A DNA stretch of 64,000 bases, taken from Lophium mytilinum (Eukaryota). The DNA lies in NCBI GenBank assembly GCA_010093605.1, contig MU004201.1, forward strand, positions 1-64,000. Direction: 5' to 3'. Within the stretch, counting starts at the first letter, position 1. The number at the start of each line of letters is the position of its first letter. The notes beneath the pieces were generated by a model that did not search any database, was not told where the DNA came from, and saw only the letters and a program-made list of their open reading frames with translations. The position numbers were made by a program, and so were the translations under genes. This document shows positions 11,216-32,190 of this stretch, one piece after another.

Positions 11216-12484
11216 GGAGCCCCTCTACAAGGCTGCAGCTTTAAAAAAATAAAAAAGCAACTTTGTGTTTTGCTAGAGAAAAATCCAAAAAGTTTAATGT
11301 CCTGCACACGGTAACTTATATTCTACATTATATTCTATTTCTTAACTTTATATAGTTATTTCCTATATAATATACTCATCTTCTAGCAGTATTTATAAGC
11401 TACAGATATATTTTAAGTATTTAAGCTTATAATTCTATGTATAACTATGTTAATTTACTTTATAAAGTTTTAATTATATACATAATACTAATAATTACTT
11501 TTAGTGCCTCAAATCTAGATAATCAAGTATAGATTACGTATTTACTGTATATAATAAGTGAATTTATAAAATAAAACCCCCAAATACCTGATTTTATCTG
11601 CTACTATAAGCCTGTCTTATTAATATTTATATCTAAAAGCTTTTCTAATTCAATTTAATATATTAGGACTGTAGCACAGCGGAAATTTGATCGGGCACAC
11701 TAGTCGTCGGCCGTTTGTATGACTGTGCGCGTGTTTGTGTAACCGGTCATGAGCGTTCGAATTTGCCACACACCCACGCGTTTTGATACGGTCATCGCCG
11801 AAGTCGTTTGCAAAACTGGTCGGAGGATATATAGGGAGGCCAGAGTATCTGGTCATAGAAATTTTGACATAGTCGTTTTCGATTTTTGATAAATATCTGC
11901 TCGCCGAGCTATTTCTTTTGAAGTGGGCGGAGCTTCCCTATTTTACTGCAAGAGAGCCTAAAAAGCGCCTGTAGTATAGCACTGTTGTGGCCAGTGTAGC
12001 GCGCTTTGTTGGTGCTTAGAAGCTACTTGTTCCTTGTTAGACCGCATAATCGTTCGCTGAGCGCTGAATTTACTGTCCATAAATTTTGCGTGTATCGCGA
12101 CGTGGCAGCCTTAATTTGCTTGTGTGGGCGCAATTTATCTTGCATTATTGTGCTCCGCTTTCAAATTTTGGCAGGATACCAGCTAATTAATTTTAGCTGG
12201 TCCAAATGGTGGGTGTGGATTACTGACTACTAGTCAATGATTCAGCGAGTTAGTTAGAGGTAGACTTAAACCGGGTACCGCCTTAATAATGCGTGCTGGG
12301 GATAGAAACCCTTTATATTAAAAGCCTATGTTTTAGCTTTATGGCAGCTTTTATTAGCCTAAATAATTCTATTGCGGACGGCTTTTTAAGAGATTCAGGG
12401 GGGGCAATTAGATGACCTAAAGTTTTATTTTAGCGCTCAGCGTTACTATTTTACTGATGGTTGGGAGCCTAGCTCCCTTACTTT
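11216..12484 (+). repeat. Truncated terminal rDNA unit (IGS/ETS only)
   Basis: Matches 1-1269 at offset 11215 and diverges at 12485, 84 bp before the 18S would begin. Confidence 0.92.
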
Positions 12485-13125: not shown

Positions 13126-13621
13126 TGTTAGGCCTTGCGGGTAACATTAGCTTGTAAGTATGTAAGTAGCTAGTATTAGAAAGTAAGATTGCTTCTTAAT
13201 TACATTTTTTTGTGGCGCTGTAGTAAAACTAGCTGCCCGGCCTTACACTTTAAGAAGCACAATGGTCCCGGGTGGGTTTCTAGTTTAATTGGGCTTGTAA
13301 GTAAGCTTATGCCTAGGTTTTAGCACCGTTAGATTGTTCCGGCGATTGGGGCTAACAGTATTCACTAATCCTGCGGGGGTTGCTAGGGAGAAGGGTCTGA
13401 GGGCTCTAGTGACTGGGGTAAATACTAGGGGGTAACTTGTGCGCTTACACCCTACGGCCATCCTACAAGAATGTAGGACCCTGGAGAAAAAGGAGGTAGT
13501 ATTAAGCCTTGCGGGTAATATTAGCTTATAAGGGTATAAGTAGCTAGTATTAGGAAGTAAGATTACTTCTTAATTACACTCTTTTGTGGCGCTGTGGTAA
13601 AACTAGCTGCCTGGCCTCACA
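13126..13621 (+). mobile_element. TRIM-like miniature LTR retrotransposon, copy 1
   Basis: 122-bp direct repeats at 13126-13247 and 13500-13621 (TG...CA ends, one mutated), 252-bp noncoding interior, purine tract GGAGAAAAAGGAGG before the 3' LTR, 5-bp TSD CGGGC/CAGGC. Confidence 0.88.
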
Positions 13622-14017
13622 CAGGCCTTACTTTAGATTAGGGTTTAACTGCACTTCTAGTACTCTTTAGTCTATAATAAAGCCCTTTATAAAGCCCTAT
13701 ATATCTACTATAGGCCTAAGTTTAACTACTATATAAATTTTAGTAAAGTGTATAGTATATTATTTTTCTAAGGCAAGTACTACGCTGTGTTTTTTTACCT
13801 ATGCTATGCACCGCTTATAGGCTTTCTTAATAGCCCTATAGTTCTCTTCTATAGTTTAGCTATATACAAAAATATATTTATAATCTATAAAACTATAGTC
13901 TATTATATTACTATCTTAAAGGGTTAGTAATAGCGTGCTAGTAAAGAAGAGAAAGAGAATAAGTAATAGGAAGGAGCCCTATAGTATATCTATAGTAACT
14001 GTAATTAGTTCTACTAT

Positions 14018-14240
14018 TGTAAGGACTTGTAGGCTATATAGAGAAAGGTAAGGTTTCTATTACTATACTATAGAAGTTGTAAGATAAAAAGAGAAAAGAG
14101 ACGCGAGCGCAGCAGCTAGAAGTACGCTGCTGTGCACGCGCTAACGCGCTAACGCGCTAGCGTGCTAAGAGGCGCAAGAGCACGTGACCTACCTGCCCGT
14201 CCTGCAACAAATAAAGGAAAAGGCCTTGCAAGGCCTAATA
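14018..14240 (-). mobile_element. Solo LTR of the Gypsy family (~215-bp LTR)
   Basis: Reverse complement of the LTR at 43779-43993; flanks ACTAT/AGTAT. Confidence 0.85.
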
Positions 14241-14303
14241 AGTATATAGCTTCCTATAGATAACCTAGTTATACAGTCCTATAGAAAAGACCTATTAAAC
14301 TTT

Positions 14304-15073
14304 GGGGAGGGGTTCTAGCACACCCCCTTTTAGCTCGTAGCACACCCCTTTCTTTATCCATCCACACCCCCTTACATCTAATCTTCTGATTAGCCCAGAG
14401 GGCTCGGATTACTGCTCCGGCGCTTTATAGTAAGGCTGTACAGCCTTCCTATTTCATTGTGCATTCTTACCGTTTCTAATAGCCTATACTTAGCTGCGCA
14501 TGAGGCCATAGATAAGGCTATAGATAAAGCTGCATATATAGGCCGTACGTAAGGCCGTATATAAGGCTACTTATAGTAAGGCTATATAGTATACCTATTT
14601 TACTATATATACTTCCCGTTTCCTATATATATAGGCTATTATATTGCTATATATATGCCTACGCGCCTAGAAGCATGCTGAAATAGTTAAAACCTTACCT
14701 TAGTACAGCCTCTCCGCATTAAACCTAGCCCCCCTCTATTTCCACCTTATATAGTGCTATCTAACGTAGAAGCTCCTTATAGAAAAGCCGCGCTGCCGCT
14801 ATCTAAGGCTGAGGCTTAGGATAAGCGCTGTCTTAATGCTGTAGAATATAGCCCTCCGTAGATAAGGATGAGGATAAGATTGTAATTTGTGGCCACGCCG
14901 CATTTAGAATTAGTGAGCGACCTAATTAAGTAAATCGGAGGCCTTAGAGCGACCCTCCGGGCCAATTAGAAGATTAGACGGAAGGGGGTATACGTGGAGT
15001 AAAAAGGAGGTGTGCGTGGAGTAAAAAGGAGGTGTGCGTGGAGTTAAAAGGGGGTGTGTTAGAACCCTTCCCC
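14304..15073. mobile_element. Non-autonomous DNA transposon (MITE) with ~100-bp TIRs, GGGGA...TCCCC ends and an 8-bp TSD
   Basis: GGGGAGGGGTTCTAGCACACCCCC at left and GGGGGTGTGTTAGAACCCTTCCCC at right; TAAACTTT on both sides; empty site visible in the LINE copy near 56194. Confidence 0.85.
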
Positions 15074-15134
15074 TAAACTTTATTATCTATCCCGGCATGC
15101 TCTATACTTATGGATTATATATTATTTATTTATA

Positions 15135-17140
15135 TAGGCCGGTGCTAGGTATATAACCCCTTTTTACTACTTATATAATGCATTTTTACTGCCTGTATAA
15201 CTACCCCCCTAGTAGACCTTTCACCGTGTTTTAATTAGCTTAGAGGGCTTAGAAGAGGCTCCGGCCCTTTACCTAACTTATATATAGTCCTCCCGTTTAA
15301 TCTATAGGTTGTATAGCCTTACTATCTTATATATAGCTACGTGTCTATATACCTAATTACCTAGGAGAGTACTAAAATTATCGATTTTACACCTAATAGC
15401 GGCCCTTTCTCTATTACCGATGGCCTATAAGCACCTACAGTACTAGGATAAAAGTATATGCTAATAAACCGTGCGCACCCCACTAAAACGCATTGCGTTC
15501 TTATCTTCTAACACCACCACTACCATGGCACGACGTTTTTTTGGCCAGGGAATTAGCGGGAACGCCTAAGGATTATAAGAGCTTTCATCTAATGCTTGCT
15601 TAGCTATGCTAGTAAAGTATAAAGCCGGCGTTACTAATTAAGATCTAGCTGTAAAGTTTAGCTGTTCTTCCCGGACTGTCTATAATATAATTAAGCACTG
15701 GAAACTTTACAACACTACTACTTCCTTGCTTTAAAGCGGCCGGCCAGCAATAACTATAGTCCGGGAGAAGTAAATGCTCTTTTGGCTTGCTTGAAAATAG
15801 CCTAGAATAGAGTACTTCTAGCTAATAAAAGATGCTAGCCTTTTAGCCCGGGCTAGGCCCCCTTCTATAAGAACTGTAGCTTGGATTCTCTAGAGTTTTA
15901 GTTTAAGAAACTACTATTATACTAAGAAACCTAAGCTGAAGCTGGAGCATGCTGTTTTATAATGCCAATTCGCCAAAAAGCATACAAATTGTAATTGGAA
16001 ACACCGGGTTGTTAAGTTTATAGATAAGTGCTTAGTATAGTAGGGTTCTAGAGAGTAAGTAGAGTAGTGCTTTAAGTTTCTAGATAAGAGATTTAACTCT
16101 AAGATGGTTATAGAGAAAGAGAAGAATAAGAGAATATTCTAGATAGTATAGGGGGCCATTTAGGTGACCCTTAATAGCCGGGTTAGCCAGTTACCCCTAA
16201 TTATTATGGAAAAGGACTTTATAGCTAAGAAGAATAGGTACTTAGGCAAGAGCCGTACCTAAACTTTAGAGAAAAGGCTACTACTACAGTACCTACCTAG
16301 GAACATCTTTATGCAAGATAATGCACTAATTCACAATACTAATTAGACTAAGAATTGGCTAGAAACCTATAGGATTTGGACGCTCAAATAGCCCCCCTAC
16401 TTACCGGAGTTAAACCCTATTAAGCACATATGGTGGGCGCTTAAGAAGATAGTCTATAAGCTTTATCTAGAGCTGGCTATAATAGGTAATTTAGAAAAGG
16501 ATTAGAACGCCTTAAAGGCTGCTTTAAAGAAGGCATAGATAAAGATACCTAATTTAACCATTAGGACACTTATTAAGAGCATGCCTAGGCGCTTAGAGGT
16601 AGTAAAGAAGGCCAAGGGCTGGCAAACTAAGTACTAGGACCGAGCAAGCCTCAACACTAAATTAGGCTTGATTTCCTTATATTGTTGTATTATTTTATAA
16701 CATAAGCGCTTAATTATAGAATTTAATATTTAGGCCCGTGCGTTGTATTTAGAATATACTTTTATTAACTAACTGTACGTAAAGTCCTTATTAATAAGGT
16801 CCTCCGCATACTTATTAAATCCTTATTAGCCACCTTACAAGCTGCCTTACAAGGCTACAACTAGCCTGTTAACTGTGCTGTGCTTCCGAAGACAGGCTGT
16901 AAACCCCGGACCTAAGCTTCTAGTAGCGCAACCTGTTACTTAAGGTCTGCCTTAATATTCTTACGTCTATTTGCATAGAATTAAGTTTTTAAGGCAAATC
17001 TTCTATAGCTTTAGAGGAGTTGTGCCCTTAAGCAAGCTAATTAAAACGCGGTAAAAGGTCTACTAGGGGGGTAGTTGTATAGGCAGCAAAAATCCATAGT
17101 AGAAGTAGTAAAAAGGGGTTGTACACCTAGCACTGGCCTT
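15135..17140 (+). mobile_element. RIP-inactivated Tc1/mariner DNA transposon (~2.0 kb, ~110-bp TIRs); transposase pseudogene at 15526-16637
   Basis: Inverted repeats at about 15135-15240 and 17034-17140; TA flanks; remnants FMQDNALIH, YLPELNPIKHIWWALK and GWQTKY*. Confidence 0.88.
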
Positions 17141-17944
17141 TATATAATACTTAGTTAAACACTCCTAATATATCTAAACCAAGAAGTAATACTATAAGCG
17201 GTAAGTTTCCTTTCTATATAGTATACATCCATTCTATAAGAAGCTTAAGTGCTGTCTATATAGAGTGCTCTAGTTGTACCCTTATCTAGCTAGGCAGAAG
17301 TATGCCCTTTTCCTCCGCCAACTTAGGGAGTCTTTTAGGTATAATTTATTTAAACTACTTACCTATTATTTCTAGTAGAGTAATAGGCCTATAAGCTTTT
17401 ACTACTATATAGAACCCTTTTTAGGCCTTTTATAGCACTACTATTATTAACTCCTTAAATAGCTAGGAGGTAGTGTCTTTTGCGTAGGCACTTTATAAAG
17501 AAGCAGGCAAGCACGGGTGCTAGTTACATCTTTCACTTCTTTAGGAATCTATTTGTAACTTTTATAGTTCTTAAGGCCTTATCTAGTGCAATTCCTATTA
17601 GCGCTTATAATTCTAGGTATTAGAACTCTTCTATATTAGATAAGTCGGCTTAAACTAGTAGTAGAAAGAGCTATTCTACTAGTATATACGCTTTTATCTT
17701 ACTATCCGTATAGAGGGTAGAGTTATCAGGCCTATAATAGGGAGAGAATTAAGAAAGGGGCTTTTATTCCCTCCAACTGTGCGGCCCTATTTAGCTAGTT
17801 TCTATGCCTCTTTAGGGTCTTTAATTACTTTTTCTACTATGCGGCGCTATAGTTTAGTACTCTCCTTCCTTATAGCTCTTTTCTTGCAGTTATATTAGAC
17901 TTAGTATAATATCTAGTCCTCTATAGAACGCAATAAGCGCTATA

Positions 17945-18159
17945 TATTAGGCCTTGCAAGGTTTTTTTCTTTATTTATTGCAAGACGGGCATATAGGTTA
18001 AGTGTCCTTGCGCCTCCTAGTAAGCTAGCGCGTTAGCGCGCGCACAGCAGCGTACTTCTAGCTGCTGCACTTGCGTCTCTTTTCTCTCTTTATCTTACAA
18101 CTTCTAAAGTATAGCAATGTAAGTCTTACCTTTATCTATGCAGCCTATAAGTCCTTACA
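17945..18159 (+). mobile_element. Solo LTR of the Gypsy family
   Basis: 215-bp match to 43779-43993; perfect CTATA TSD. Confidence 0.88.
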
Positions 18160-18890
18160 CTATACTTTATATACTTACTTAGTCTTAGCACCTTCTTTAA
18201 GTACTCTTCTATCTATAATAGTCAGGCGTGCGTTAAGAGCCATGCTATTAGCACTATAGTATTATTTATAGCGTTATTAGTAATTTAGATAAGTTAGTAT
18301 AGAATGCGTATAAGGTTATCTAGGTCCTTCTTTTCTTCTTTATCTAGAGGGTTATTCTAGTTTGCTTCTCCGCATACTCTTCTATACTAACTACTTAGAT
18401 TTCTCTTTAGAATAGATAATATAGATTTATATTGCCTACTAGTATATACTCTACTTCCTTATAAGTAGAGAAAGTAGCGTATCTATAATCCTGCATGGCT
18501 TTAGGTTATAGATAATATAAATTTAAATATCCTCTTCTCTAGCCTAGAAGGAGAGGGTAATAAGATCTAGTAAGTAGTACTTAATAGTCTACTAGCCCGG
18601 GTCTAAGCACTTGTTAATATATATATATATATTGTAGCGTTTAGGCTTTCTTAATATAATAGATAGTATTATTTCATGCGTAGTAAAGTGTATTTCTAGG
18701 TATTCTTCTATGGTTTCTAAATAGCTAGCACCAGCGGCTAAGGCTAGGCCACCTCTGCCTTCTTTAGAAACTCTTCTTAAGTTTCTTAGCTCTTATTAAT
18801 ATTGTACTATATAATAGTAAGTATATTAGGTAATCCTAGTATTAAGTACCTATAAAATCCTTAGAGTCGGCTATTATAGCCCAGCTAGCC

Positions 18891-19012
18891 TGTAAGGTCG
18901 AGCAGCTAGTTTTACCACAGTGCCATAAAAGAGTGTGATTGAGAAGCAATCTTGCTTCCCAATACTAGCTACTTGTACCCTTATAAGCTAATGTTACCCG
19001 CAAGGCCTAACA
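18891..19012 (-). mobile_element. 122-bp TRIM LTR
   Basis: Reverse complement of the TRIM LTR with intact TG...CA ends. Confidence 0.85.
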
Positions 19013-19526
19013 CTACTATACCTGATAGTATTACTAAGACTAATACTATTAGTTATGTACGCCTAGTTCTACCTACTAATTTTATAGGCAATGCTATTAA
19101 GAACGCCTTTAGCGCTAATCTATAATAAATGCCTAGCAAGATAGTTAAGAAATATAGCGTTAAACTTAAACTATAAAGTTTATAATAGACTTATCTATAT
19201 ATACTAGCGGTAGAAGAATTATAATCTACTATTACTAAACGGCTATATAAACCCCTATCTAAAGGCTATAAAAGTATAACTTCTACTTTTAAATAATTCT
19301 TAACCTACTACTTTTAGCCTAGAATATATAATATCGACCGGTAAATTAAGGTTTATTATTCTTACAACTATATTAAACACGCTCATAAGGGTAAATAAGG
19401 GTTCCTTAAGCTACTACTAATCCCTAATTATTACTAGACTAATATTACTATTAACTTTATTAGATCACTTCTAGTTAGCAGCCGGTTTAGTAGAAACTCT
19501 TACTATATTATAGTAATTATTAACTG

Positions 19527-19740
19527 TGTTAGGCTTTGCAAGACATTTTCCTTTATTTATTGCAAGACGGGTATATAGGTTATATGCCCTCGCGCCTCTT
19601 AGAAAGCTACCGCGTAAGACGCGCACAGTAGCGTACTTCTAGCTGCTGCGCTCGCGTCTTTTTTCTCTATTTATCTTACAACTTCTATAGTATAGTAATA
19701 TAAACCTTACCTTTATCTACACAGCCTATAAGTCTTTATA
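19527..19740 (+). mobile_element. Gypsy-family LTR, preceded by a degenerate integrase-like fragment (~19020-19526)
   Basis: Matches the 43779-43993 LTR; the upstream segment resembles the integrase region near 42300-42570. Confidence 0.7.
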
Positions 19741-19759
19741 ACCTTAATGCCTTTTTTAT

Positions 19760-21720
19760 TCTTCTATATAATCTTTTTAATAATAAAGCCAGGGTAAGTT
19801 AGCGCGCTACTTTTAATAATAGTCTATCTCTAAGCTACTTATATCTATGTTTTTAGGCACTCTATGCACCTCTATAAGCACTGCAGGCTATTATATACAT
19901 GCTAATTTATTTAGCACTATTATCTACTTCTTTTTTTAAAAGTAAGAAAGCTTTAATAACCTTATTACCTATATACGCCTCTACGTCTCTACTCTAGAGC
20001 TTCCTAACGCTGTATATCTTAGACATGTCCGGAGGTTCTATAGTCTAGAGCTTTTCTATAATAGTTGCATTATTATTATCTCTAGTAGGTAGATTGCTTA
20101 TTAGCATTTTTAATATAGATAGTAATCTTATTATAAAGCCGGGTAGTAAGCGTTTCTATAGTACTGTAAAAGAGTATAACTTAGGAGTAATCTTACTTTC
20201 TACTACAACTTACTTATACTCTTATAAGCTAATATTATCTATAAAGCCTAAGACTTCTTATTATATAGTTGTTTAGCATTCTCTTAGTTTTTATTTAAGC
20301 TAGGGGTTACTATATATACGGACGTTATATAATCTCTATACTAAGGGTTTATCCGGCGCCTAAGGTTCTGCCGGCGCCTAAGGTTCTGCCAGCGCCTAGG
20401 GTTCTACCAGTGCGCACTTAACTACATAGTAGTTTTATAGCTAGAGCCCTTCTCCTCTCTATGCAACCTTGTTAATAGTAATACAACTCTTTTATTAGCT
20501 ATAAACCTAATACTTATAGATGTCTATAAGCTATATTATATATAATACGTTTCCTGTAGCCTTACTATAGGCCTACTTAGTCTTGCTAGAGCCTATAGCC
20601 CCTAGTTCTATTTAAATAGCTGCCGCTGCTACAGCGTACGTCTTTTCTTATAATAATAACGCGCGTACTTCTTCTATTACCTTCTTTCTAGCATTCTCTA
20701 TTTTCACTTTTAATTGTATATATAGTTTCTAGTATAGCTCGGGCAATGCGCTTAATAAGTTATTAATAGCGCGTCTAATAAACTCTTAGATAACCTAGTA
20801 GAATTAGTCTATCTATATAGAAGAGGGTAGCTTATTCTATAGTTAGGTCTATATGTACTAGGATTTATAGAAAGTATCTTAAATACCTTGGTAGGTAGTT
20901 TTAGGGGGCTTTAGATAGTATTAAGGTTTTACTTAATAGTATTATTATTGTTATTAGTTCTAGAAGAGCTGCATAACTAGAGTTGTAATATATTAACCTA
21001 CTATAACGCCGCTAGCACTACTTATAGAGCTCTAAAGCTTTATATAATTATCTAAAGGGCCTTAAGTAAGGCCTAGAGGCTATAGTTATATTATAGTTTT
21101 AAGATACTGCAAGTTTAATTATATTATATTATCGCTCCGGTGTAGTATTCTAGTATATTTAGCTTTATCTTTTATATTCTATATTTTTTATACTAGTATC
21201 TTTAGTAAAAGGTATATTTATATAGTATTAGTAGCTGTACTTATATACTAGCTTACCACTAACTAACGTTTCTAAATCTGCTAAGTTGAAAAATTCTAGA
21301 TTAATTTAAAATTTATGTCAAAACACCTAGAAGTAAGCTAAGATAGATAAAAGCTTACTTTATTATAGCTTCTTTATATTAAACCTTGCTTCTCTATATT
21401 CCTGCCGCTTTTTCTACTACTATATAGCCTCTTTCTATAGTACTATCTTCTTCTATAGTAAGCTAGATATATTATTACGTTGTTTCTTAGCATTCTCTTA
21501 GTAGTCATTGAGGCCAGGGGTCATCCCGTGCACGGACGTCACGTGATCTCCGGGCCGAGGGTTCTTCTGGCGCCCGGAGTTCTGCCGACGCTCAGGGTTC
21601 TGCCGGCACGCACTTAACTACGTAGCAGGCCTGTGGCTGGAGCCTCTCTCCTCTCTATGCAACCTTGTTAATAGAAATACAACTTCTTTGCAGCTATAAG
21701 CTTAATATATATCTTGTGTG
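19760..21720 (-). mobile_element. Degenerate LINE ORF1-like relics with an 18-bp tandem repeat
   Basis: 20960-21130 resembles the LINE 5' region at 59710-59860; CCGGCGCCTAAGGTTCTG occurs three times at 20353-20410 and again, less mutated, at 21560-21610. Confidence 0.45.
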
Positions 21721-22084
21721 CAGATGCAGCTATAAATATAGTAGTAGGTAAAGCTATTAATGTAGTAGTTAATATAGGTCTAGATATAATTTAGATGCAG
21801 GCATAAAGAGAAAATAAAGATAATACTATTTATAAATATACTACATAGAGAGTATTTAAAGATAGTAAAAAAGTTAGGTAAGTAAACTAGAAGCTGTAGA
21901 GTAGTAATCTAGGCTAATTAGAAACTTACATAAAAGGGGATATATATAGAGTAAGAAGAAGTTATATATATAGCTAAAAGAAAGTATATTAGAAGCTTTT
22001 TTCTTAAATATAATATTATTCTTATTGCTTAGTTATATTAAAGTAACTAGTAAGCAATACTAAATTTTTTCTCTATATATGCTG

Positions 22085-22775
22085 TATTATTTCCCTTTAT
22101 ATACCCCCCTCCCGTCTAATCTTCTAATTAGTCCTGAGAGCTTAGATTACTACTCTAGTGCTTACGTATCTTAATTTAATAGTAAGGCTGTATAGCCTTT
22201 CTATTTTATTATATATTCTTACTTTTTCTAGCAATCTGTATATAACTACGCGCTGTGTGTAAGGCTATATAGTAAGGCTATAAAGTATACCTTTTTATCT
22301 ATATATACTTTCTGCTTTCTATATATATAGGCTACTATATACTATATATATGCCTATGTATATAGAAGTAAGCTATAATAGTTAAAACTATACCTAACTA
22401 CAGCTTCTTTGTATTAAACCTAGTCCTGTTATATTTCTACTACCCCTTTTTAGCTATCCTAAGCTGTGCAGTAATATATACGCTTTAAACACCTCTTTAG
22501 CTTCTTCTAGAGAATTGTAAGGCTACTATAGTATTAGCTAGAGCTCTATTATATTTACTATAGTAGTAGAAAATAAGAACACTAGTAAGATTATAATTAC
22601 TTATAGCTATGCTATATTTAGGGAGGGTATTTAGAATTACTAAGCAACCTTAATAAGTAAAGTAGAAGCCTAAGAGCAACCCTTCTAGCTAATTAGAAGA
22701 TTAGATAGAAAGGGGTATATATAGAAGAAAAGAAGGGTATATATAGTAGAAAAACCCGGTGTAGTATTACTAGTG
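22085..22775. mobile_element. Degenerate copy of the GGGGA-ended MITE family
   Basis: Shares the TCTAATCTTCTAATT / AATTAGAAGATTAGA subterminal inverted motifs and the interior with 30408-31225. Confidence 0.65.
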
Positions 22776-23746
22776 CCCTATATTAGTGATTATGAAAAGT
22801 TTGTTAATTTTTGCATGATTATTTAGTTTAGTGATTGTCAAAAAAACCTACAATACTATTTTTAATGTATAATATAATTCTTATTAGCCTTTTCTATTTA
22901 GTAAAAGTATAATAACTATTAATATTTAATATAGATAAATATAGATAAGTCTAACTATACGCTAGATTAGCCGAAATATAAATTCTTAACTTAGTAGACT
23001 TTATTTCTTAATATCCTGCTGCACCTAAGGATATAAAGAATAACTTACTATTTAATTTTAAGAATAGCTTACTACTTAACTTCAAAAAGAAAGTACTATT
23101 AAAGCAATACTATTAAAAAAAAACCTACTACTAAAGGAAAAGGTACCATAGAAGAGGGTAATATAGTAGTACTAAAGATATAGGTAACATAAAATAGATT
23201 TAAGTAATATAAAATAGTTATATTAAAGCTACAATCTAACAGCTTAACTCTATTTATAGGTATATATAGATAAGTATAGTAATATAACAACCTATATATA
23301 CTAGACACTTTGTATTATTATTAACTATATATATAGTTTTTTATATAGCTTTTTACTGGCTATATATAGACTATAATAATAAAATAGAATAAAAGAAAGT
23401 AAAACAACTATAGAGTATTTCTATACAGGAAAAATATATACAGCTACAAAAAACTATAGTAGTATTTTAAGCACTCTGAACTAGTTGGAAAATAATATAT
23501 TAGGGCGTTATATATAGACAAAGTAAGTCCTAAAATAAGAAAAAGGTATTTTATATTTAACATTAATTTTCAAAGTAAGAAACTGATTTTATGTAGGAGG
23601 TATATACAATTGTTATCTTTCTAATAGTAGTATAAAAAACTTATAACTAATTAATTCANNNNNNNNNNTTACTAGAAGAAATGTACTATAAATAAATACT
23701 TAGACTTACAATTATTTGTCTAGTAAATCATTAAGATTTATTTCTT

Positions 23747-26224
23747 TTATATATCATTAAACCCGGAGTTTTTAATTTTATTACTATCATAAGTATTAAG
23801 AGTATTTTTAGCTTTTTCTATATATCTCTCTACTTGTCTACTACTAGAATTACGATCTTCTAGCTGTATTGGAGAACCTAAACTAGAATAAGTTCTAATA
23901 GATTGATAGCTATTATCCTGGGGGTTTTCTTTATTAATGGCATCTATAGTATCTTCTTCTGGAATATTATCTAATTTTGGGATTGGTTCTGAGCTTTGTC
24001 TTAATCTGTATTGAGGTTGGGCCCTACTTAGGCTTCCTAAATTAGCAGAAGATTGAACTCTCCTTATTCCCCTTTCGTTAATTTGAGTAGTATTAGAAGT
24101 ATTTAACTCTCTATTAAGCTCCTGTTTTTGCGTACTAGATTGTTTAATAGATGATTCATCTATATTAGTTTTAAACCTAGTTTCTGGGTTTTTACTTTGT
24201 TGTAGAAATCTTAACTCATCCTGGGTTTTCTCTATGTTAGATTGATAACTACTACCTTTTGGAAGGTCTTTTAGAAAGGACTTAAAGGTATCTTTAAGTT
24301 CTTCTTGTCCTTTAGTTGAAAGCATATATGGATATCGACAGGTAATAGCATTTTCTATTGCTTTATCTATTTGTTTAATACTGTAATAGCTATGTGTTTT
24401 ACAATTTCGTCCTCTACATGGAAATATAAGTTGGTAAAAATAGCGTAATTGTAGCCAGGTAAAAGGTTTAAAACGTAATTCATTTAGAACTATTATAGTA
24501 GCTAGTAAATCTAATTTATTAACACCTACTGGGTGTTCATGAATTTCCCAAAATCTACGCTCAGTTTCTTTTCGATTTATCTTTTTAGCAAAAAGCACAC
24601 TTAGAAGTAGTTCATTGTTTTGTTGTGCCATAGTAGGGTGTAAAAACCGTGCAGTTATATTAATGCTATCTTTACGAAGTAATCTATTAGTATAAAAAGA
24701 TTTATACCATTTATTAGGATCTTCATTAATAGGATCAAATGATCCAGGAACTTGGGATTCCGGATCTAGAGTTTGGATTCTAAGTGAGTATATTATACTA
24801 AATTTAGCTCTTTCTAAATCATATTTAAATTGAGGGAATCTTTCTACTATATTAATATCTTCTGTTACATCTAATGCATCTACATCTAAAGCTAGTGTAG
24901 GAGCTATAGTTGTTTTTAAATTTAATGCATTTTCTATTTTTACTCTAGTACGAGTAATGCTTGAAAGTTCAGAAGAATAATCATAATCACAGCTACTATG
25001 TAGTAGATTATCTTTATTCTTACTATAGTTTATAGTAAAACTCCCTTCATAGAAATTTCTATAAATATGTTTATTTAAAAGTATTCTCATACCTCTAGCA
25101 AATTCTATTTCGAGAGGTTTTTGTTGAATAATAATGCCTTCCTTTGAAGTTTTTTTAATAAATGGGGTTTGAAGAAAAGCTTTAAATATATTATCTGCAT
25201 TTAAATTTGGAAAAACTAAAGCTAAGCCACGTTCAAAGTACTTTTTAAGTCGACGTTCAAATGTAAGACTACGACGAGTAATATCTACAATAGTACATCC
25301 ACTTAGTAAAGAGTAAGCAGCTAGTTCAGTACCAATAATTCTAGGGCCTAGACTAAAACATAAAGCAACCGCTGCAGCTGTTATATCAAAACCGTAAAGG
25401 ATTTGACTTATACTCGTATAGGACCGTAGAATAATTTGAACCTTTTGTACTTTCCATTTTAGAGAAATAGAATTAGATTTTTGGCTATGTAATTTTTCTT
25501 GTCTTTGTAGAAAAGATTTATCCTCTATAGAAGTATTTGGATATAATATAGATGGCGAGGGTTCAATGTTACAATCTTTTTTATCTAGTTGTCGTATTGC
25601 AAAAGATGGGCGGAAAGTAACACTGTTATTTGTACGTGTAGCTAAAGTTAATTGTAGATGATTATTAATCCATTTTCCAAGTTCTTTAACCGCTTGTTTA
25701 TATTCTTCTTCATTTTTATATCCGTAAAGAAAAAAATCAATATCATTTGACTGGATATTTTCATACATAAGACTATGAATTGAACCTCCAGCAATACAAA
25801 TATGCGGTTTCAAAGAGTTGGGTAGAGTTTCTAGATAGTAGGTCCAGAATGGTATTAAGTCTTGTAAATTAATAGTTAGATTTGGGCAATCTGAGTTACA
25901 AACACTTAAAAATGGAGTATTAGGTTTTTTTCCTGAATTAGGTTCCTTATAAAGAGAGAGTTTATTCATTATAGTACGATTAACTATAATAGACTGAAAG
26001 TCATACTTTTCATTTATAAGATGAGAGTTAAATCCATAGAGTATATTAGATTCTAGATCATTAAGAGGTTCTTGTTTCTCAGATTGTATATGTTTAATAT
26101 TATAAATACTACTATCAATAGACTTAGACCAAGTAAATAAATAAGGATCTAGTTCGCCTATTCGTCGTCGTTGGTCATTACGGAGTAGGGTTTCTTCAAG
26201 ACTTGGAGTTTCTTGGAAATCCAT
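23747..26224 (-). CDS. 825-aa protein with a Pol-beta-superfamily nucleotidyltransferase domain resembling a giant-virus/fungal family, followed by a C-terminal region of unknown function
   Basis: Intronless 2478-bp ORF in stop-rich DNA; motifs IAGGS..SNDIDFFLYG, VQIILRSYTSISQILYGFD, DITRRSLTFERRLKKYFERG, PGSFDPINEDPNKWY. Confidence 0.8.
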   Translation of the reverse strand: MDFQETPSLEETLLRNDQRRRIGELDPYLFTWSKSIDSSIYNIKHIQSEKQEPLNDLESNILYGFNSHLINEKYDFQSIIVNRTIMNKLSLYKEPNSGKKPNTPFLSVCNSDCPNLTINLQDLIPFWTYYLETLPNSLKPHICIAGGSIHSLMYENIQSNDIDFFLYGYKNEEEYKQAVKELGKWINNHLQLTLATRTNNSVTFRPSFAIRQLDKKDCNIEPSPSILYPNTSIEDKSFLQRQEKLHSQKSNSISLKWKVQKVQIILRSYTSISQILYGFDITAAAVALCFSLGPRIIGTELAAYSLLSGCTIVDITRRSLTFERRLKKYFERGLALVFPNLNADNIFKAFLQTPFIKKTSKEGIIIQQKPLEIEFARGMRILLNKHIYRNFYEGSFTINYSKNKDNLLHSSCDYDYSSELSSITRTRVKIENALNLKTTIAPTLALDVDALDVTEDINIVERFPQFKYDLERAKFSIIYSLRIQTLDPESQVPGSFDPINEDPNKWYKSFYTNRLLRKDSINITARFLHPTMAQQNNELLLSVLFAKKINRKETERRFWEIHEHPVGVNKLDLLATIIVLNELRFKPFTWLQLRYFYQLIFPCRGRNCKTHSYYSIKQIDKAIENAITCRYPYMLSTKGQEELKDTFKSFLKDLPKGSSYQSNIEKTQDELRFLQQSKNPETRFKTNIDESSIKQSSTQKQELNRELNTSNTTQINERGIRRVQSSANLGSLSRAQPQYRLRQSSEPIPKLDNIPEEDTIDAINKENPQDNSYQSIRTYSSLGSPIQLEDRNSSSRQVERYIEKAKNTLNTYDSNKIKNSGFNDI

Positions 26225-28938
26225 TATGGTTTTATGTATATATTGTAATTAATAAACTGTTTTTAACGAAATAAAAGTAATAGAATAAGTTTTTTAGAGT
26301 AAAAGTAGCAAAATAGAACTAATATAGTAAAGAAAATGTAGCAAGTAGAGATAAATTTAAGCTATCTGTATTAATCCTTATATATACTTTCTAATTGAAC
26401 TTAGTATATATTTTAAAATAGAAAGATAAGTTAAACATTCTAATTAAAAGGTGATAATTTTAATAATACAAAGACAGTAGATTATTATCTTATTTTACTT
26501 TAGGGTTTCGCTTGAGTTATAATACTTAGTTTATTATTTAGAATAATTATTATATAAAACTATAATTATTATGTTAAGAAGATTATTATCACGATTAGTT
26601 TTGTTATGCTAGTATATTTCTCACTAAGGTATAAAGTAATTAGTAGCTTTAAATCATACTATTCTAATAGAATAAGCTAATAAATATAGATTAAATATAA
26701 TATTCAACCTAAAAACATTGAATAAAGTTAATAATATAACTCGAAAGTATTAGCAAGAATTATAATAGATAAAAATACTTATTTTAAATTGAATAACCTA
26801 ATTACTTATTGTTTAACTTTCTAGAGCAACTGTGTATAACTATATAAGAAATATATATATTACTTAACATTAGCGTAATACTATAGTTACTATTAGTCAA
26901 ATTATCTATTATTATATTATAACCACTAGTGTTGCTGCTGGTAGAATTAATGCAATAATTTAATCTTATGTTGTCTACTCTATAAAACTATATACTGCTA
27001 CATAGTATTTAGATAAAATAACATAGTTTCTATATATAGCACTAAATACATCTTTTATATAGATTATATAATAATACTTTTAAATATAACTTAGAAAAAC
27101 CTCTTATTATATGTTTCCTTTAAACATGTAGCTTTAGTGAATAGAAACTATACTATTGTAATTAATAGTAGATTTTAAAATCATAGGATATATGTATTTC
27201 TTTAGCTTATTATATAATAATATGGCAAGTAACTAGATAAGCTACCTACTCAACTATATAGTAAGCTTGCTGTTATCTTCTTTATAGTATAAATAGACCT
27301 TCTTTAGTATATTATATTATTCTCTAGCTATAATGATTAAGGTATAGTTATTAGAGACTAGGGAGCTGTTTTATTCAGGCTAATCTATAAAAAGAAACTG
27401 TACTCTACTAGGCAGTATTTGGATTTGAAAACCTGTCGTCTATAGATTATTATGCTAAATCCCTACTTATATCACAATTTAGCTACTAGAAATATATAGT
27501 AGATCTATTAGGTCTAATATAAAACTAGCTATCTAGATATACTCTCCTAAACTAAACTGGGTAGTTTAATGCTTTCCCTTAGATTTAAGTTAAGCAGACT
27601 TCTATATAGAAATGCTTGTTTAGGATTATTATAGATACACGTATGCTAAGTAGGTGTATGGATATTATTACTTTAAAGTGCAAAAAGATATTAAATTAAA
27701 TTATAGGGGCTATGTAAATTAAGATAAGTAGAAAGCTATTTAGTATACAGGTAGTATATAGCTATTAGGTAGATATACATTAGGTAGTAATATTACTCTA
27801 CTCTAGATTTAGTTTACTTTTAGTGGAGGTAGAGTAAAGAATATACAATAGAGGGTAGAGAAAGTTATTAGTATAGTTAATAGTCTATAGTATAGAGGAA
27901 GTATATTTTATATAAAAACGCTATTCTTCAATAAGAAAACTAATAAATAGAAAGCCTTACGCAAAATAGAATGTAGCAAATAATAAATACATAGTAGATA
28001 GAGAGTATATTATATTATAAATGAGCTATTACTATAGAGATAAGCATATATTATAGAAATTATATTCTAGAGCTATAATAAAAATTTTATATAACCTATT
28101 TTATATAATAGAAGGTATATAGCAGGTATAGGGTTTAATTATATAGCTAAAGCTTAAAGGCTTATAGAAGGACTAAATAGTAATGTTAGATTTGCTACTT
28201 GCCTTCTACCTAGACGGGTTAGTAGGTAGTATATTAACGGGTAGTATAATATTTTATTAGAAGACTACTATAGCAGATAAATCTAACCCTTAATAGAAAG
28301 CTACTATAGCCTCTATTTAGTAGCGTTTTAGGTCTAGAACCTTATAGTAAAAACGGTAGAATATAGAGAATATATAGTTTAGATAGTATATAGCTTTCCA
28401 AAGAGGCTATTAGGGTAATAGAAATGCTACTATAAATAGAAAGATTAATATCTCCTCCTTTCCCGCCGTTTTAGCTATTAATAAATAAAGCAGGAGGTTT
28501 ACTTTCTATAAAACCTACTAGGCTAATACTTTAGGCCCCTTCTTTAACCCAAATAACTTTTTAACTCTGATTTAGTATTACTACATTAAATAGTTTAGCG
28601 CTATCTTTAACGTGGGTTTTATAGCTTAGCGCTATATATTTAGATAGGTAAAGCCGTATTAATAGAGGTAGAGTAGTACTAAGTAGCCTAGTATTTAAAT
28701 ATAGAGTAAAAACCTGTTGTAACCTATAGACTATGATTTTTAGTTAGTAAGTATTATATTTGTAAATGTTATAAGCCTTTACGCTTTATATCTTATTATA
28801 TACTCTATTTAGTGCTAAGTAATAATAATAGTTGTAGTTTTTATTACATTGCTATATAGTAGTACTATTACCTCTTTTTCTACTTTCTTTTTATTTGCAC
28901 TTAGGTAAAAAGTACATTAAGTATCTATAAGCATAATT

Positions 28939-29415
28939 TGTTAGGCCTTACGGGTGACATTAGGTTGTAAGGGTACAAGTAGCTAGTATTAGGAAGTAAG
29001 ATCGCTTCTTAATCACACTCTTTTGTGGCGTTGTGGTAAAACTAGCTGCCCGGCCTCACACGTTGAGAAGTACAATAGTCCCGGGCGGGTTTCTAGTTCA
29101 ATCGGGCTTGTGAGCAAGCTTGTGCGCAGTTTAGCACCGTTGGATTATTCCGGCGATCGGGGCTAATAGTATTCACTAATCCTGCAGGGGTTGCTAAAAG
29201 GGTAACTCGGGTGAATACTGGGGGGTAACTTGTACGCTTACATTCTACGGCCGTCCTACAAGGACGTAGGACCCTAAAAGAGAAAGGAGGTAGTATTAGG
29301 CCTTGCGGGTAACATTAGCTTGTAAGGGTACAAGTAGCTAGTATTGGGAAGCAAGATCGCTTCTTAATTACCCTCTTTTGTGGCGCTGTGGTAAAACTAG
29401 CTGCTCGGCCTTATA
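28939..29415 (+). mobile_element. TRIM-like miniature LTR retrotransposon, copy 2
   Basis: 122-bp LTRs at 28939-29060 and 29294-29415; interior homologous to copy 1; purine tract AAAAGAGAAAGGAGG; TSD TAATT/CGATT. Confidence 0.88.
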
Positions 29416-30407
29416 CGATTGCAGTTATACTTCTAACTATGCAGCTAGCTTTATAGTCTTTACTACTAGATTATAGGATATATTGTGCCTACTAGAAGTA
29501 TACTATTATACTGCTATTAGATTATATTAAATAATAATTTTCTTTTATATATTCCTGCATGCTAATTAAACATGCTTCTAAATAGGCCCTAACCCTACCT
29601 AGTCTATATGTACTTCTCTATAGGAGTTGTGTCTCTATTAGGCTATAGTTATAAATTACTACTTGTATTTTCTATATATAATTAAAAATATCCTTTCAAA
29701 AAATAAGGATAGAATTATTAGTAAGCTATTAATCTTTTCTCTTATATTAGCTATTATTGTATATTTTAATACGTACTTTTGCGTCTAGAAGTATACTACA
29801 ATAGTAGAACTCTAACTTTATTACAGATTTTCCGCATTAGACCTAGCCCCCCTACATTACTAGGGCCCTTTCAAGCTATTCGAATTATTAAACCCCTCTA
29901 TTACTGGCTTGTATAATTTTATCTAACATAAAAGCTGCTTAATTACAAGCCGCGCTAGTGCTACCTATAGCTAAGGCTAAGGCTTAAAATAGGTAGAACC
30001 CTAATATTCTATAGCTATCTTCTATAGTACTACCTTTATTCTTACTACTTTATCCTTTAAATTACTAGGCTAGAAATACTTTTTAGGTGTAGTAATAGGG
30101 CAGTACGGCTAGAAGCTGTAGTAAGAGGTAGAGGAAAAGATTAATAATATAATTACTATTTATAGCTATACTGCATTAAGAAAGAGTATGTAGAATTAGT
30201 AAAAAGCTTAATAAGTAAATTAGTAGCTTTATTAGACCTTTCTAGACTAATTAGAAGTTTGGATATAATAGAAGTGTATATGTAAGAGAAATAAGTACTT
30301 AGAGCAAAACCCTGGTATAGGATTATTAGTCATCTAATTAAAAGTATATTTAATAGTATAGATAAAGAAAGGTAAATTACTTTTCTAAAGAATCCAAGTT
30401 AATTTAA

Positions 30408-31225
30408 GGGGACTAATAATCCTATACCGGGTTTTTCCTCCATGTACACCGTGTAATTCCTCCACATACACCCACTTACGTCTAATCTTCTAATTGGCTC
30501 GGAGGGCTCGGAATACTGCTCCGGCGCTTCATGGTAAGGCTGCACAGCCTTCCCATTTTATTGTGCATTCTTACCGTTTTCAACAGACTATTTGGCCGGG
30601 CGTAAGGCTGTAGATAAGGCTATATATATAGGCCGTGCGTGAGGCTATATATAAGGCCGTATTTATAGTAAGGCTATATAGTTATAGTAAGGCCGTGTAG
30701 TATACCCGTTATACTATGCATACTTCCTATTTCCTATAGTGCATAGGCCGTTGTATTACTACCTACGTGCCTACATATAATTATGCCAAAATAGTTAAAT
30801 CCTTACCTTGTTACGGCCTCTCCGCATTAAACCTGGCCCCCCTACATCGCCCCTGCGCCCCCCTAGCTATCCTAATCTCCTAACGCCTCTATATGCTAAT
30901 TATATAATACCATCTAACATTAGAGCTCCTTATAAGGAAGAAGCGCCGGCACTGCCTAAGGCTGAGGAGCTAGCTAAGGGGGCGGCTGGAGGGCTATAGT
31001 AAGAGGTGTATTATAGAGAAAGAGATTAAGGTTAAGGTTGTAATTGCTTATGGCCACGCCGCACTTGGAGAGAGCATTCGGAATTAGTAGTAAACCTAAG
31101 CGAGCGAATTGGAGGCCTCGTAGGACCTCTCCAGACTAATTAGAAGATTAGACGTGAATGGGTGCATATAGAGGAGAAAACGGGTGTACATAGAGGAAAA
31201 ACCTGGTGTAGGATTATTAGTCCCC
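30408..31225. mobile_element. MITE with GGGGAC...GTCCCC termini and an 8-bp TSD
   Basis: GGGGACTAATAATCCTA at left and TAGGATTATTAGTCCCC at right; TAATTTAA duplicated at 30400-30407 and 31226-31233. Confidence 0.88.
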
Positions 31226-32190
31226 TAATTTAATAGATAGTATTATTCTCTTTTTTACTATAGTATTATCCTTTATTCATTGCTATTAAATAAAACATTA
31301 TTTCTATTAGGCTTTGCAATACCTTTTCCTGTATTTATTACAACAGGAGCACTTTAATTATATACTTTTCCGCTTCTAAGCAAGTTAGCGCATTAGTGCA
31401 TATATATAGTAGTATACTTATAGTTACTATACTTACCTCTTTTTTATCTTTCTGTTTTACAACCTCTATAGTAAAAGTAATAAAAACCTTATACTTACTT
31501 ATATAGCCTATAAATTTGTCTTAAACTAGTTTAGAGAGAAAAGTCAAATTAGCAGCTTTACTTAAGAATTAAAGAATATTATCTTTCTTTCTATAGTATA
31601 TAGTAGTAGGAAATATATATAATTATATTACTAATTTAAAAAGACTAGAAAGTATATAGAGCTTTTAAGCTTAAATAGGGCCCGCAAATTAGTGTTATTT
31701 AAAATAGTATAGTCTAAATATAAGCTTTTATTAAGCTTATAGTGTTTACCTAGGATGTAAGTTTAAGAAAGCATGCAGAATGTTTAGGGTAGTATACTAG
31801 CCTACTAAAAAAATATAATATAGTTAATTTGAAAACACAATGCAATTAAATTCGCAGCATCTTGGAAATATAACCTAAGAAGGGCCCCTTAAGGCTACTT
31901 AAGACCCTATAAACGTTTGCAAGCAGTATTAGAGCCTTACAAGTAGTGCTGGCGGCGTCGCAGTAGAATTACGCATCGCGACCCCTATTATAGAGCACGA
32001 TTAATAATACTAACTATAACCCTAAAACCAACCCTATAACCCAAAGTCTAAGTAGAATGTCTACGCTAATATCTAAGCACTAGTTTAAGAAGTCCGCAGT
32101 ATCTAAGACTACCTATAGAATAAGCCTTAACCACCTAACCCTAAGATAAATAACATCCTCTAGCACCTCTGGAACTTCGCAGGACGCGTA

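Follow-up and report, generated by a model that had tools for sequence, protein, structure and literature searches.

A putative host gene for a divergent Gad2-family nucleotidyltransferase in AT-rich, repeat-flanked DNA near the rDNA of Lophium mytilinum

What is a long, uninterrupted open reading frame (ORF) doing in the AT-rich, repeat-laden DNA next to the ribosomal RNA genes (rDNA) of the fungus Lophium mytilinum, and where did it come from? The ORF lies in a stretch of 64,000 nucleotides (nt) of contig MU004201.1 (assembly GCA_010093605.1, positions 1 to 64,000 of the forward strand), which was analysed at its full length and is referred to here as the window. An earlier inspection of the letters alone (the sequence-only reading) had described an intact, intronless nucleotidyltransferase of giant-virus type, spared from repeat-induced point mutation (RIP), and had proposed an endogenised viral or horizontally acquired enzyme fused to an unrelated C-terminal module. 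In this study, we report the characterisation of the ORF by database searches, structure prediction, phylogenetics and sequencing-read data, and conclude with moderate confidence that it is a functional, single-copy, intronless host gene for a divergent member of the Gad2 family within the Pol-beta nucleotidyltransferase superfamily.

The ORF encodes 825 amino acids (aa), from ATG to TAA, at 23747..26224 on the reverse strand, and its stop-to-stop frame comprises 833 codons. The other five frames of this interval contain 39 to 136 stops, and in DNA of 30% G+C an open frame of 833 codons is therefore not due to chance. Stop-to-stop frames of at least 150 aa within the window number ten, six of which overlie the run of 470 N at 10746-11215 and are artefacts; the remaining four are a frame in the large subunit (LSU) rDNA, the 825-aa ORF, a Tc1/mariner relic (182 aa) and a frame of 172 aa at 48832-49350. 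Subject to the small qualification of the latter two frames, no other long intact ORF lies outside the rDNA, as had been stated. The description of the ORF as intact and intronless was borne out. Every motif that had been quoted was found in the translation in the order given: IAGGS at aa 144-148, DIDFF at aa 161-165, QIILRSY at aa 263-269, ILYGFD at aa 275-280, DITRRSLTFERRLKKYFERG at aa 314-333 and GSFDPINEDPNKWY at aa 494-507. In an alignment of the nine closest sequences (the ORF protein and eight relatives, hereafter A1), the N-terminus of the ORF aligns to the N-termini of the relatives, with M1, D17 and R21 invariant, so that translation probably does begin at the ATG at 26222-26224, and an intron need not be assumed. 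On the evidence of the reading frame and the aligned relatives, the interval is described as an intact ORF for a Gad2-family (PF26128-type) nucleotidyltransferase homologue. Neither of the two protein searches (word-index and HMMER) returned an earlier-known identical protein, the best match having 35% identity. Genes of this kind, intact and placed on a small unique island among RIP-affected repeats, are easily overlooked by annotation.

Comparison with protein databases places the ORF product in the Gad2 family (Pfam 38, PF26128), a family of Pol-beta-type nucleotidyltransferases (NTases). All seven matches of the word-index search carried the precomputed label PF26128.2, with relatives at E values of 1e-17 to 1e-20; the same label was present on 10 of 13 matches of the profile search, and all 30 feature matches in the protein Atlas fell inside the PF26128 'Gad2' set. 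The assignment is based on these precomputed labels of the relatives and on the Atlas set, not on a score against the Pfam hidden Markov model; with a Pfam library that lacks the PF26128 model, scans of 21 relatives gave no match for the NTase domain, and the scan of the ORF protein gave none at E≤1 except a spurious one to Dit_N. No ankyrin family was among the matches of that scan, in agreement with the remark in the sequence-only reading that ankyrin repeats were not visible. Of the nearest Atlas clusters, one is 90% viral (Nucleocytoviricota, with the automatic name 'Ankyrin repeat protein family'), and the other two are 54% and 96% eukaryotic, the last consisting of diatom proteins. At E≤1e-3, HMMER retrieved 1834 representative relatives, of which 303 reached E≤1e-10 and three E≤1e-30. 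Among the PHROGs, the ORF protein matched phrog_4400 (E 3.9e-6), and phrog_1614, annotated 'nucleotidyltransferase', was matched by four of the five relatives scanned; when the core was compared by tblastn with 50,697 phage records, nothing matched at E≤1e-3. Relatives carry varied domain fusions, namely RING (P0017), WD40 (P0043) and DUF6940 (P0128), and BTB or VWFA in viral proteins. The ORF is thus a new, deep-branching member of a catalogued but functionally uncharacterised family whose eukaryotic members are already in the databases, and which, with its 1834 representative clusters, spans phages, giant viruses and eukaryotes. The assignment to a poorly characterised NTase family found in Nucleocytoviricota proved correct, viral members often being labelled 'ankyrin repeat protein'.

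The catalytic signature and the other family-invariant residues are conserved in the protein. The signature of the Pol-beta superfamily, hG[GS]-x(9-13)-Dh[DE]h, was found as IAGGS, 12 residues and DIDF (aa 161-164); in the DNA, this catalytic signature (hG[GS]-x12-DhDh) occupies 25736..25789 on the reverse strand, with G146, G147 and S148 encoded at 25781-25789 and D161, I and D163 at 25736-25744. In an alignment of 114 family sequences (A2), G146, D161, D163, F165, Q263, F279, D280, S319, R325, K328 and Y329 are invariant, and A145, G147, D314, R317, R318 and the SFxPI...WY block are conserved in at least 90%. The family-conserved residues downstream of the signature are encoded at 25268..25438 on the same strand, comprising Q263 (25436-25438), F279-D280 of 'GFD' (25385-25390) and D314-x-x-R317-R318-S319 (25268-25285).

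An AlphaFold2 (AF2) model of aa 95-660 was built on A2. It has a mean predicted local distance difference test (pLDDT) value of 72.7 and a predicted template modelling score (pTM) of 0.69; most of the core exceeds a pLDDT of 90, and low-confidence stretches fall at about aa 211-233 and 520-566. The core was assigned the alpha-beta NTase fold from its pLDDT and from structural matches. Foldseek against solved structures returned the A-/CCA-adding enzymes 3wfs, 3wfr and 3wfo at the top, with a best E value of 3.7e-4 (3wfs_D), followed by TENT5/FAM46 and bacterial poly(A) polymerase. Superposition with VIA-align onto 3wfo_A gave a Z score of 10.3 and a root-mean-square deviation (rmsd) of 3.7 Å over 189 aligned residues, model positions 8-318 corresponding to chain positions 3-225. 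The A-/CCA-adding enzymes as a group ranged from Z 10.3 to 8.5, with Thermotoga CCA-adding enzyme entries at 9.1-9.4, followed by bacterial poly(A) polymerase 3aql (8.4), TENT5C (7.6) and Pol beta (about 4.4). In all, 32 chains reached Z≥8, and those listed are all NTases. In its predicted fold, the protein thus resembles class II CCA/A-adding enzymes and bacterial poly(A) polymerase over their head and neck portions. At the sequence level, a search of the PDB with the single ORF protein gave no match at E≤1, and the family profile aligned its 'liAGGsv...nDiDiF' with the human CCA-adding enzyme 1ou5 at a weak E value of 0.12. Two [FeFe]-hydrogenases also appeared in the profile search of the PDB (E 0.022 and 0.034) and were discarded as spurious matches to a low-complexity stretch. 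Membership of the class II CCA-adding enzyme/poly(A) polymerase family was likewise rejected, the protein having no match to PF01743, no RRD motif and only 'DITR' in resemblance to EDxxR.

Four parts can be distinguished in the protein. The NTase head and neck, delimited by the AF2 core, VIA-align and Foldseek, comprise aa ~100-415 (24980..25927, reverse strand) and contain an insertion at about aa 205-255 that was modelled with low confidence and is otherwise found in A1 only in P0008, the nearest relative. The conserved C-terminal module of the family follows at aa 416-520 (24665..24979, reverse strand) and ends in GSFDPINEDPNKWY (24704-24745). It is defined by conservation in A1 and A2: P488, S495, P498, W506 and Y507 are invariant in A1, and in A2 the equivalent positions show either no variation or at least 90% conservation. 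In the AF2 model, residues 352-416 (model numbering), which fall in this module, have partly high pLDDT. A helical extension at aa 536-640 (24305..24619, reverse strand) is supported by the A1 alignment, by AF2 helices with pLDDT of about 55-65 and by BLASTP, in which aa 536-635 aligned to residues 562-656 of P0008 with 32% identity (pairwise E 9e-6). As this extension is common to the closest relatives, it is not a foreign fusion. The last part is a tail (aa 641-825 and the stop, 23747..24304, reverse strand) rich in S, N, Q, K and E, which is probably disordered; no alignment by HMMER or BLASTP extended past about aa 640, and an Atlas search with aa 536-825 gave no usable match. The unrelated module of about 300 aa that had been proposed at the C-terminus is accordingly reduced to about aa 640-825, for which no relative was found, and the claim does not stand for aa 536-635, which align to P0008 and in A1.

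The origin of the gene was addressed by comparison with viral relatives, which are numerous. In BFVD, 75 models matched at E≤1e-3 (down to 2.3e-15), including proteins of Hokovirus, Pithovirus LCPAC, Pandoravirus, Fadolivirus and Bodo saltans virus, and several bear the label 'Ankyrin repeat protein', BTB or VWFA. When IMG/VR was scanned with patterns, 15 of 30 stretches were confirmed, giving 14 loci on giant-virus contigs with 23-36% identity to the ORF protein, and one viral contig of 480 kb had six matches in five ORFs. This dominance of giant viruses in the family would fit an endogenised gene, taken from a Nucleocytoviricota genome or left as the sole intact remnant of a virus-derived insertion. 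Such an origin would also fit an intronless gene with 30% G+C (15% at third codon positions, GC3) in repeat-rich DNA, and a family in which named fungal relatives are scarce, a single one (P0010) having been found among the 20 relatives looked up.

The trees argue against it. A FastTree phylogeny was inferred from 175 rows: the ORF protein, 163 further proteins, from which P0157 had been removed because it duplicated a cluster, and 11 viral loci. The other three of the 14 viral loci were excluded from the trees, L005 for duplicating L004, L011 for duplicating L007, and L014 for being a fragment with a stop. The ORF fell in a clade of 13 rows with Shimodaira-Hasegawa-like support of 93. IQ-TREE was then run under LG+C20+F+G4 with posterior mean site frequencies (PMSF) on 43 rows and 462 columns, the rows being the ORF, the 12 other clade members, 17 chosen representatives, the 11 viral loci and two metagenome ORFs. 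The 17 representatives were chosen as top scorers and FastTree neighbours, so that 29 of about 160 representatives were used in all. The same 13-member clade was recovered with support of 100/100, and all 11 IMG/VR giant-virus loci used lay on the other side. Within the clade, the ORF was sister to the other 12 members (97/70), as in the quick tree; since branches are long (1.38 for the end branch of the ORF), the branching order among its members is uncertain. When IMG/VR was scanned again, now with patterns specific to the 13-member clade, none of 13 stretches was confirmed. The reading of the ORF as an endogenised viral gene is thus not supported by the trees, nor is the impression that its motifs were closer to the viral version. 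The YFERG form in particular does not discriminate viral proteins, as it also occurs, in the form KYFRRG, in the lichen-fungus protein P0010.

Two members of the clade have eukaryotic ties. P0010 (KAI9671330.1) was derived from a metagenome-assembled genome of the lichen fungus Alyxoria varia and has 28% identity to aa 122-512 of the ORF protein (pairwise E 3e-41). The putative locus of P0016 (L015), on a metagenome contig of 8194 nt that equals in length the contig recorded for P0016, has Dynamin_M and GED domains in separate upstream ORFs and is 56% covered by ORFs, as expected of a eukaryote with introns. By comparison, metagenome loci L017 and L018, which lie outside the clade, are 92-94% coding on one strand. 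On these sequence comparisons, we favour the view that the 13-member clade is a eukaryote-associated subfamily, deeply separated from the giant-virus radiation. Identity to the viral loci (23-36%) is in about the same range as that to the clade members, no Pfam domain, viral or other, was found in the 12 kb of flanks (0 of 24 frames), and the AT-richness is explained locally by the RIP-type bias of the flanking DNA. We therefore regard an origin from a giant virus as unlikely, and the present evidence does not document giant-virus endogenisation in an ascomycete. As a separate observation on the clade, P0009, P0011, P0012, P0015 and P0018 carry at their C-termini a common, conserved stretch of about 350 aa (…C-x-N…D-x-P-x-E-L-x-W…N-G…C-Y…P-R-G…), which has no Pfam match and is absent from the ORF protein; locus L016:710-3460 has the same length as P0018.

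A bolder proposal concerns the role of the clade. It may be a eukaryote-resident Gad2-type lineage, an old sister to the giant-virus and phage radiation, and the fungus may maintain its copy by selection, within RIP-degraded heterochromatin at the edge of the rDNA array, for a function in genome conflict. If this were true, the product might, for instance, tail the RNAs of repeats or invaders, or modify a nucleotide or nucleic acid sensed by defence, as a eukaryotic counterpart of phage anti-defence. We consider this proposal doubtful.

A host gene should also be distinguished from the cargo of a large transposon or mobile island, which would account for both the patchy distribution of the gene and the repeat setting. 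Read depth was taken from two DNA runs of the likely source sample (X1 and X2), which are probably the assembly's own data and hence not independent of it. Depth is mostly flat across 22904-28500, at 55.5 in X1 and 22.4 in X2, and rises in the left repeats to a summed depth of 1019 in X1 (at 22202-22435) and 481 in X2 (22.0-22.4 kb), up to about 18-fold over the gene. Repeat families stop near 22.8 kb and restart at 28939, so that the gene sits on a unique AT-rich island of about 6 kb (22904..28500 by flat depth, extending to about 28.9 kb). No second copy of the gene occurs within the window, and the supposition that it is single copy was supported by the flat depth of 55.5 and 22.4 against up to about 1000 in the repeats.

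The flanks contain 13 direct (D1-D13) and 15 inverted (I1-I15) repeat families of 60-93% identity. Those of the left flank (13126..22779) are diverged and bear a strong RIP-like signature, and the right flank (28939..31396) holds copies of D1, D2, D3, D4, D7, D8, D12 and D13, the same families as on the left; D1, for example, occurs at 13126 and 28939, and D7 at 14328 and 30432. Further right are relics of mobile elements: a reverse transcriptase relic at about 36.5-37 kb (forward strand; RVT_1, E 4e-6), a gypsy-like pol relic in two frames at ~40.6-42.4 kb (forward strand; RVT_1 with E 4e-18, RNase H and Integrase_H2C2), and a Tc1/mariner transposase relic at 32331-33515 (reverse strand) with in-frame TAG codons at 32967-32969 and 32574-32576. 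The description of the surroundings as RIP-mutated transposon DNA is therefore correct as regards RIP-mutated repeats and the presence of transposon relics in the region. It was not confirmed for the immediate flanks, which could be assigned to no transposon class: in the 12 kb closest to the ORF, translated with X in place of stops, no Pfam domain occurred in any of 24 frames. Transport by a mobile element would agree with the repeat families on either side (D1, D7, D12, D13), with the retrotransposon and Tc1 relics nearby and with the varied domain fusions of the relatives, which are typical of fast-evolving conflict genes. Against this, read depth shows the island to be single copy; domains of a transposase, integrase or tyrosine recombinase were not found within 6 kb on each side (0 of 24 frames); and the flanking repeat copies are short (67-194 nt), 80-93% alike and of a kind scattered as fragments across the whole region, no terminal repeats bracketing the gene. 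That the gene is mobile cargo is in our view quite improbable.

The composition of the ORF bears on whether it is under selection. It has 30.2% G+C, with 41, 34 and 15% at the first, second and third codon positions. RIP can leak from repeats into adjacent unique DNA, as in Neurospora and Leptosphaeria. In the rDNA, TpA/ApT is 1.08, (CpA+TpG)/(ApC+GpT) 1.05 and the RIP index about 0; beyond the rDNA spacer the two ratios are 1.57-1.75 and 0.48-0.59, with 1.74 and 0.59 in the flank at 11.3-23.6 kb. The ORF, at 1.22 and 0.82, lies between rDNA and flanks. In steps of 500 nt, the composite RIP index stayed at 0.12-0.73 across the ORF, compared with 1.2-1.7 at 22-23.5 kb and 27.5-30.5 kb. The tail (aa 641-825), which is nearest to the left repeats, is the most RIP-like part of the gene, with a TpA/ApT of 1.33 versus 1.20 for the core. 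The observation that the ORF is AT-rich and yet retains CAA and TGG codons was confirmed (30% G+C; 38 CAA and 7 TGG, in addition to 6 CAG and 8 CGA): the 51 CAA, CAG and TGG codons are each one RIP-type transition from a stop, and all are intact, whereas the shorter Tc1 relic has acquired two TAG. The idea that the gene was spared from RIP holds in so far as its signature is weaker than that of the flanks, with the composite minimum over the ORF; it does not hold in the strict sense, as the dinucleotide ratios are intermediate and not RIP-free. From these compositional data, the low G+C is most readily attributed to mutation biased towards A+T in an AT-rich region under the influence of RIP, against which purifying selection would have acted.

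The same measurements were set against the possibility of a dying gene, as yet open, neither expressed nor selected any more, and being slowly eroded by RIP leaking from the neighbouring repeats. The intermediate dinucleotide ratios and the more RIP-like tail would suit such a gene, and so would the lack of an identical protein in either search (best 35%) and expression support limited to one contig of 166 nt in run X3. Nevertheless, all 11 family-invariant residues are kept, all 51 near-stop codons are intact in a frame that is much longer than the Tc1 relic with its two in-frame TAG, and the local minimum of the composite RIP index falls exactly over the ORF. A gene in decay is accordingly very improbable.

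The integrity of the assembly was assessed from the same two runs. In each of X1 and X2, one contig of 7258 nt covers 22194-28500 with 0 differences. A scaffold gap of 10 N at 23659..23668 lies 79 nt beyond the outer end of the stop codon, outside the ORF, and both contigs bridge it, each holding 136 letters there. A mis-join at this gap, for which long reads had been suggested as a check, is thus excluded within the limits of data that are not independent of the assembly. That the ORF is foreign to the fungal chromosome beside the rDNA, through contamination or mis-assembly, is scarcely credible: two N runs (10746-11215 and 23659-23668) and a gene composition unlike that of the rDNA would permit it, and against it stand the spanning contigs with 0 differences (although X1 and X2 are probably the source of the assembly), the occurrence of the same RIP-type repeat families to the left and right of the ORF, and an rDNA spacer that is identical past the 470-N gap (1-1269 = 11216-12484). 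Additionally, run X3, which is filed under a different organism and whose nature as RNA is a guess, contains three contigs 100% identical to the window (within 21991-22735 and at 25673-25838), two of them on the repeat flank. The X3 data therefore include this genome or one very similar to it.

We return to the functional host gene as the explanation of choice. On this explanation, D161 and D163 would hold two metal ions for the binding of a nucleoside triphosphate, and the protein would attach the nucleotide to a 3'-OH in a template-independent manner, the acceptor being most probably an RNA. The D314-x-x-R317 block would probably act as a base-reading motif, like 'EDxxR' of class II enzymes, and the helical extension (aa 536-640) and disordered tail may serve binding or localisation. 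The gene would represent the earliest branch of a small clade, some members of which are linked to eukaryotes, apart from the giant-virus radiation, and may have arrived there by ancient vertical descent with many losses or by an old horizontal transfer; selection would since have removed the damaging changes brought by AT-biased mutation in the RIP-affected region.

Several points weigh against this explanation. A canonical third carboxylate is not evident in the active site, the invariant candidates for it being Q263 and D280. Sequence similarity to solved NTases is non-significant (best E 0.12, with the family profile), and the Pfam model of the class II head (PolyA_pol, PF01743) does not match the ORF protein. 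The sole candidate for transcription is the 166-nt contig of X3, identical to 25673-25838 at a depth of 3.8, in a run that also has contigs identical to the non-coding flank. Among the 12 other clade members, only the Alyxoria varia protein and the split-dynamin metagenome contig have eukaryotic ties, and no orthologue of more than 50% identity was found by HMMER among 1.84 billion representatives, the best having 35%. The GC3 of 15% would also fit an AT-rich viral donor, which would give a similar value, so that composition alone is not decisive on origin. In the literature searched, a substrate is known for none of the Gad2-family members, and the passages on phage Gad2 in a 2026 review describe its mechanism only as independent of Gad1.

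The viral members of the family have been discussed in one preprint and its phage founder in another, both cited below. The literature searched, to which the bioRxiv supplements with their tables of Gad2 homologues did not belong, yielded no paper on fungal or other eukaryotic Gad2-like genes and none that uses the name PF26128, and no paper among the matches listed joined Gad2 with giant viruses. The experimental fact found on the family is solely the cancelling of Gabija defence by phage Gad2, as described in the preprint cited below. A single-copy fungal member with complete catalytic residues, in a host that may be culturable and transformable, could therefore offer a eukaryotic entry to the biochemistry of the family.

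The wider neighbourhood of the gene is as follows. The genes for the small subunit (SSU) rRNA, with a group I intron, and for the 5.8S, LSU and 5S rRNAs occupy 1354-9759 on the forward strand. Positions 1-1269 are 100% identical to 11216-12484, and 1-95 to 10651-10745; the interval 11216..12484 (forward strand) is thus a copy of the rDNA intergenic spacer at the edge of the array. The spacer therefore runs to about 12485, and the proximity to rDNA on which the sequence-only reading had remarked is real, the array edge lying 11.3 kb from the ORF. The gap of 470 N (10746-11215), placed between overlapping identical spacer copies, may be a scaffolding artefact and not missing DNA. The group I intron (RF00028, 106 bits) is located at 3182-3543 (forward strand), begins 31 nt past the end of the SSU match at 3151 and is probably situated at the far 3' end of that gene. 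An open frame of 230 aa at 6940-7629 (forward strand) encodes a His-Cys box homing endonuclease (PF05551 zf-His_Me_endon, E 9e-15) inside an insertion of more than 1 kb in the LSU, the match at 4090-8697 spanning 4608 nt versus a model of 3401 positions; an Rfam search of 6200-8200 around this frame found no group I intron at E≤0.01. A 5S rRNA gene lies in the spacer at 9640-9759 (forward strand) and shares the orientation of the 18S-5.8S-28S unit. In Pezizomycotina, such linkage of 5S genes is unusual.

The Tc1 relic differs from its surroundings, with 48% G+C, a TpA/ApT of 0.75 and no overall RIP signature amid heavily RIP-type DNA, which suggests a recent insertion. It has 66-67% identity to metagenome transposases and 58% to a protein of Mytilinidion resinicola; its best named relatives are from Dothideomycetes, namely M. 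resinicola, followed by Pyrenophora tritici-repentis and Stemphylium lycopersici. Taken with the RIP signature and the Alyxoria match, these relatives suggest a host in the Pezizomycotina, although transposons can pass from one species to another. At 48454-49660 (reverse strand), three adjacent open frames of 108, 172 and 123 aa share an internal repeat (…NS[PQ]ESLSKLK…) and have no Pfam match. Their make-up is near that of the NTase ORF (G+C 0.30, TpA/ApT 1.23, (CpA+TpG)/(ApC+GpT) 0.92), and the segment may represent another gene in decay, on a further island where RIP has had less effect.

Among known systems, the founder of the family is Gabija anti-defence protein 2 of Bacillus phage SPbetaL7, which is reported to cancel Gabija (Yirmiya et al., bioRxiv 10.1101/2023.05.01.538930). 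The same preprint describes a protein of about 400 aa with an NTase domain predicted by AlphaFold2 and toxic when expressed in bacteria (bioRxiv 10.1101/2023.05.01.538930). The ORF protein is linked to it by relatives that carry the PF26128 label and by the matches to phrog_4400 and phrog_1614. It differs in length, being twice the size, and has in addition a segment at the N-terminus, the helical extension and the disordered tail. As its host is a eukaryote and Gabija is bacterial, the role of phage Gad2 cannot carry over.

Closer parallels at the active site are found in giant viruses. According to a preprint on the BTB-NTases of Pandoravirus cluster 7, motif A is present, a conserved Gln occupies the place of the third carboxylate, DFD replaces the RRD of motif B and two conserved Arg lie downstream; the proteins are predicted to be class II NTases of relaxed specificity (bioRxiv 10.1101/2023.12.02.569716). 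The ORF protein has the same fold as these and the BFVD proteins, and its family shares, as far as that description goes, motif A, the invariant Gln, a 'GFD' corresponding to DFD and the two Arg. In contrast to the giant-virus proteins, it has no BTB, ankyrin, VWFA or RING domain by Pfam, belongs to a separate clade and is encoded on a fungal chromosome.

TENT5/FAM46 proteins (7cqz, 6w36, 6jyj) form a second structural tier, at Z 7.0-7.6 over 196-204 aligned residues and extending over model positions up to 8-416; identity is 8-10% and the rmsd 4.3-4.8 Å, and Z values of this order may, by the tool's own note, reflect merely a common arrangement. The nearest solved structures are the class II tRNA nucleotidyltransferases and poly(A) polymerases (3wfo/3wfr/3wfs, 3h37, 5hc9, 1ou5 and 3aql), at Z 10.3-8.4 and an rmsd of 3.5-4.1 Å over 157-189 residues. 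The ORF protein differs from these enzymes in sequence, with an identity of 11-15%, no RRD and EDxxR only as V-D-I-T-R, and in architecture, the body and tail domains with which they hold tRNA being replaced by an unrelated beta-rich module and helices. The structural match of the model to this class, together with the alignment of motif A, suggests that the protein carries out template-independent nucleotide transfer to the 3' end of RNA.

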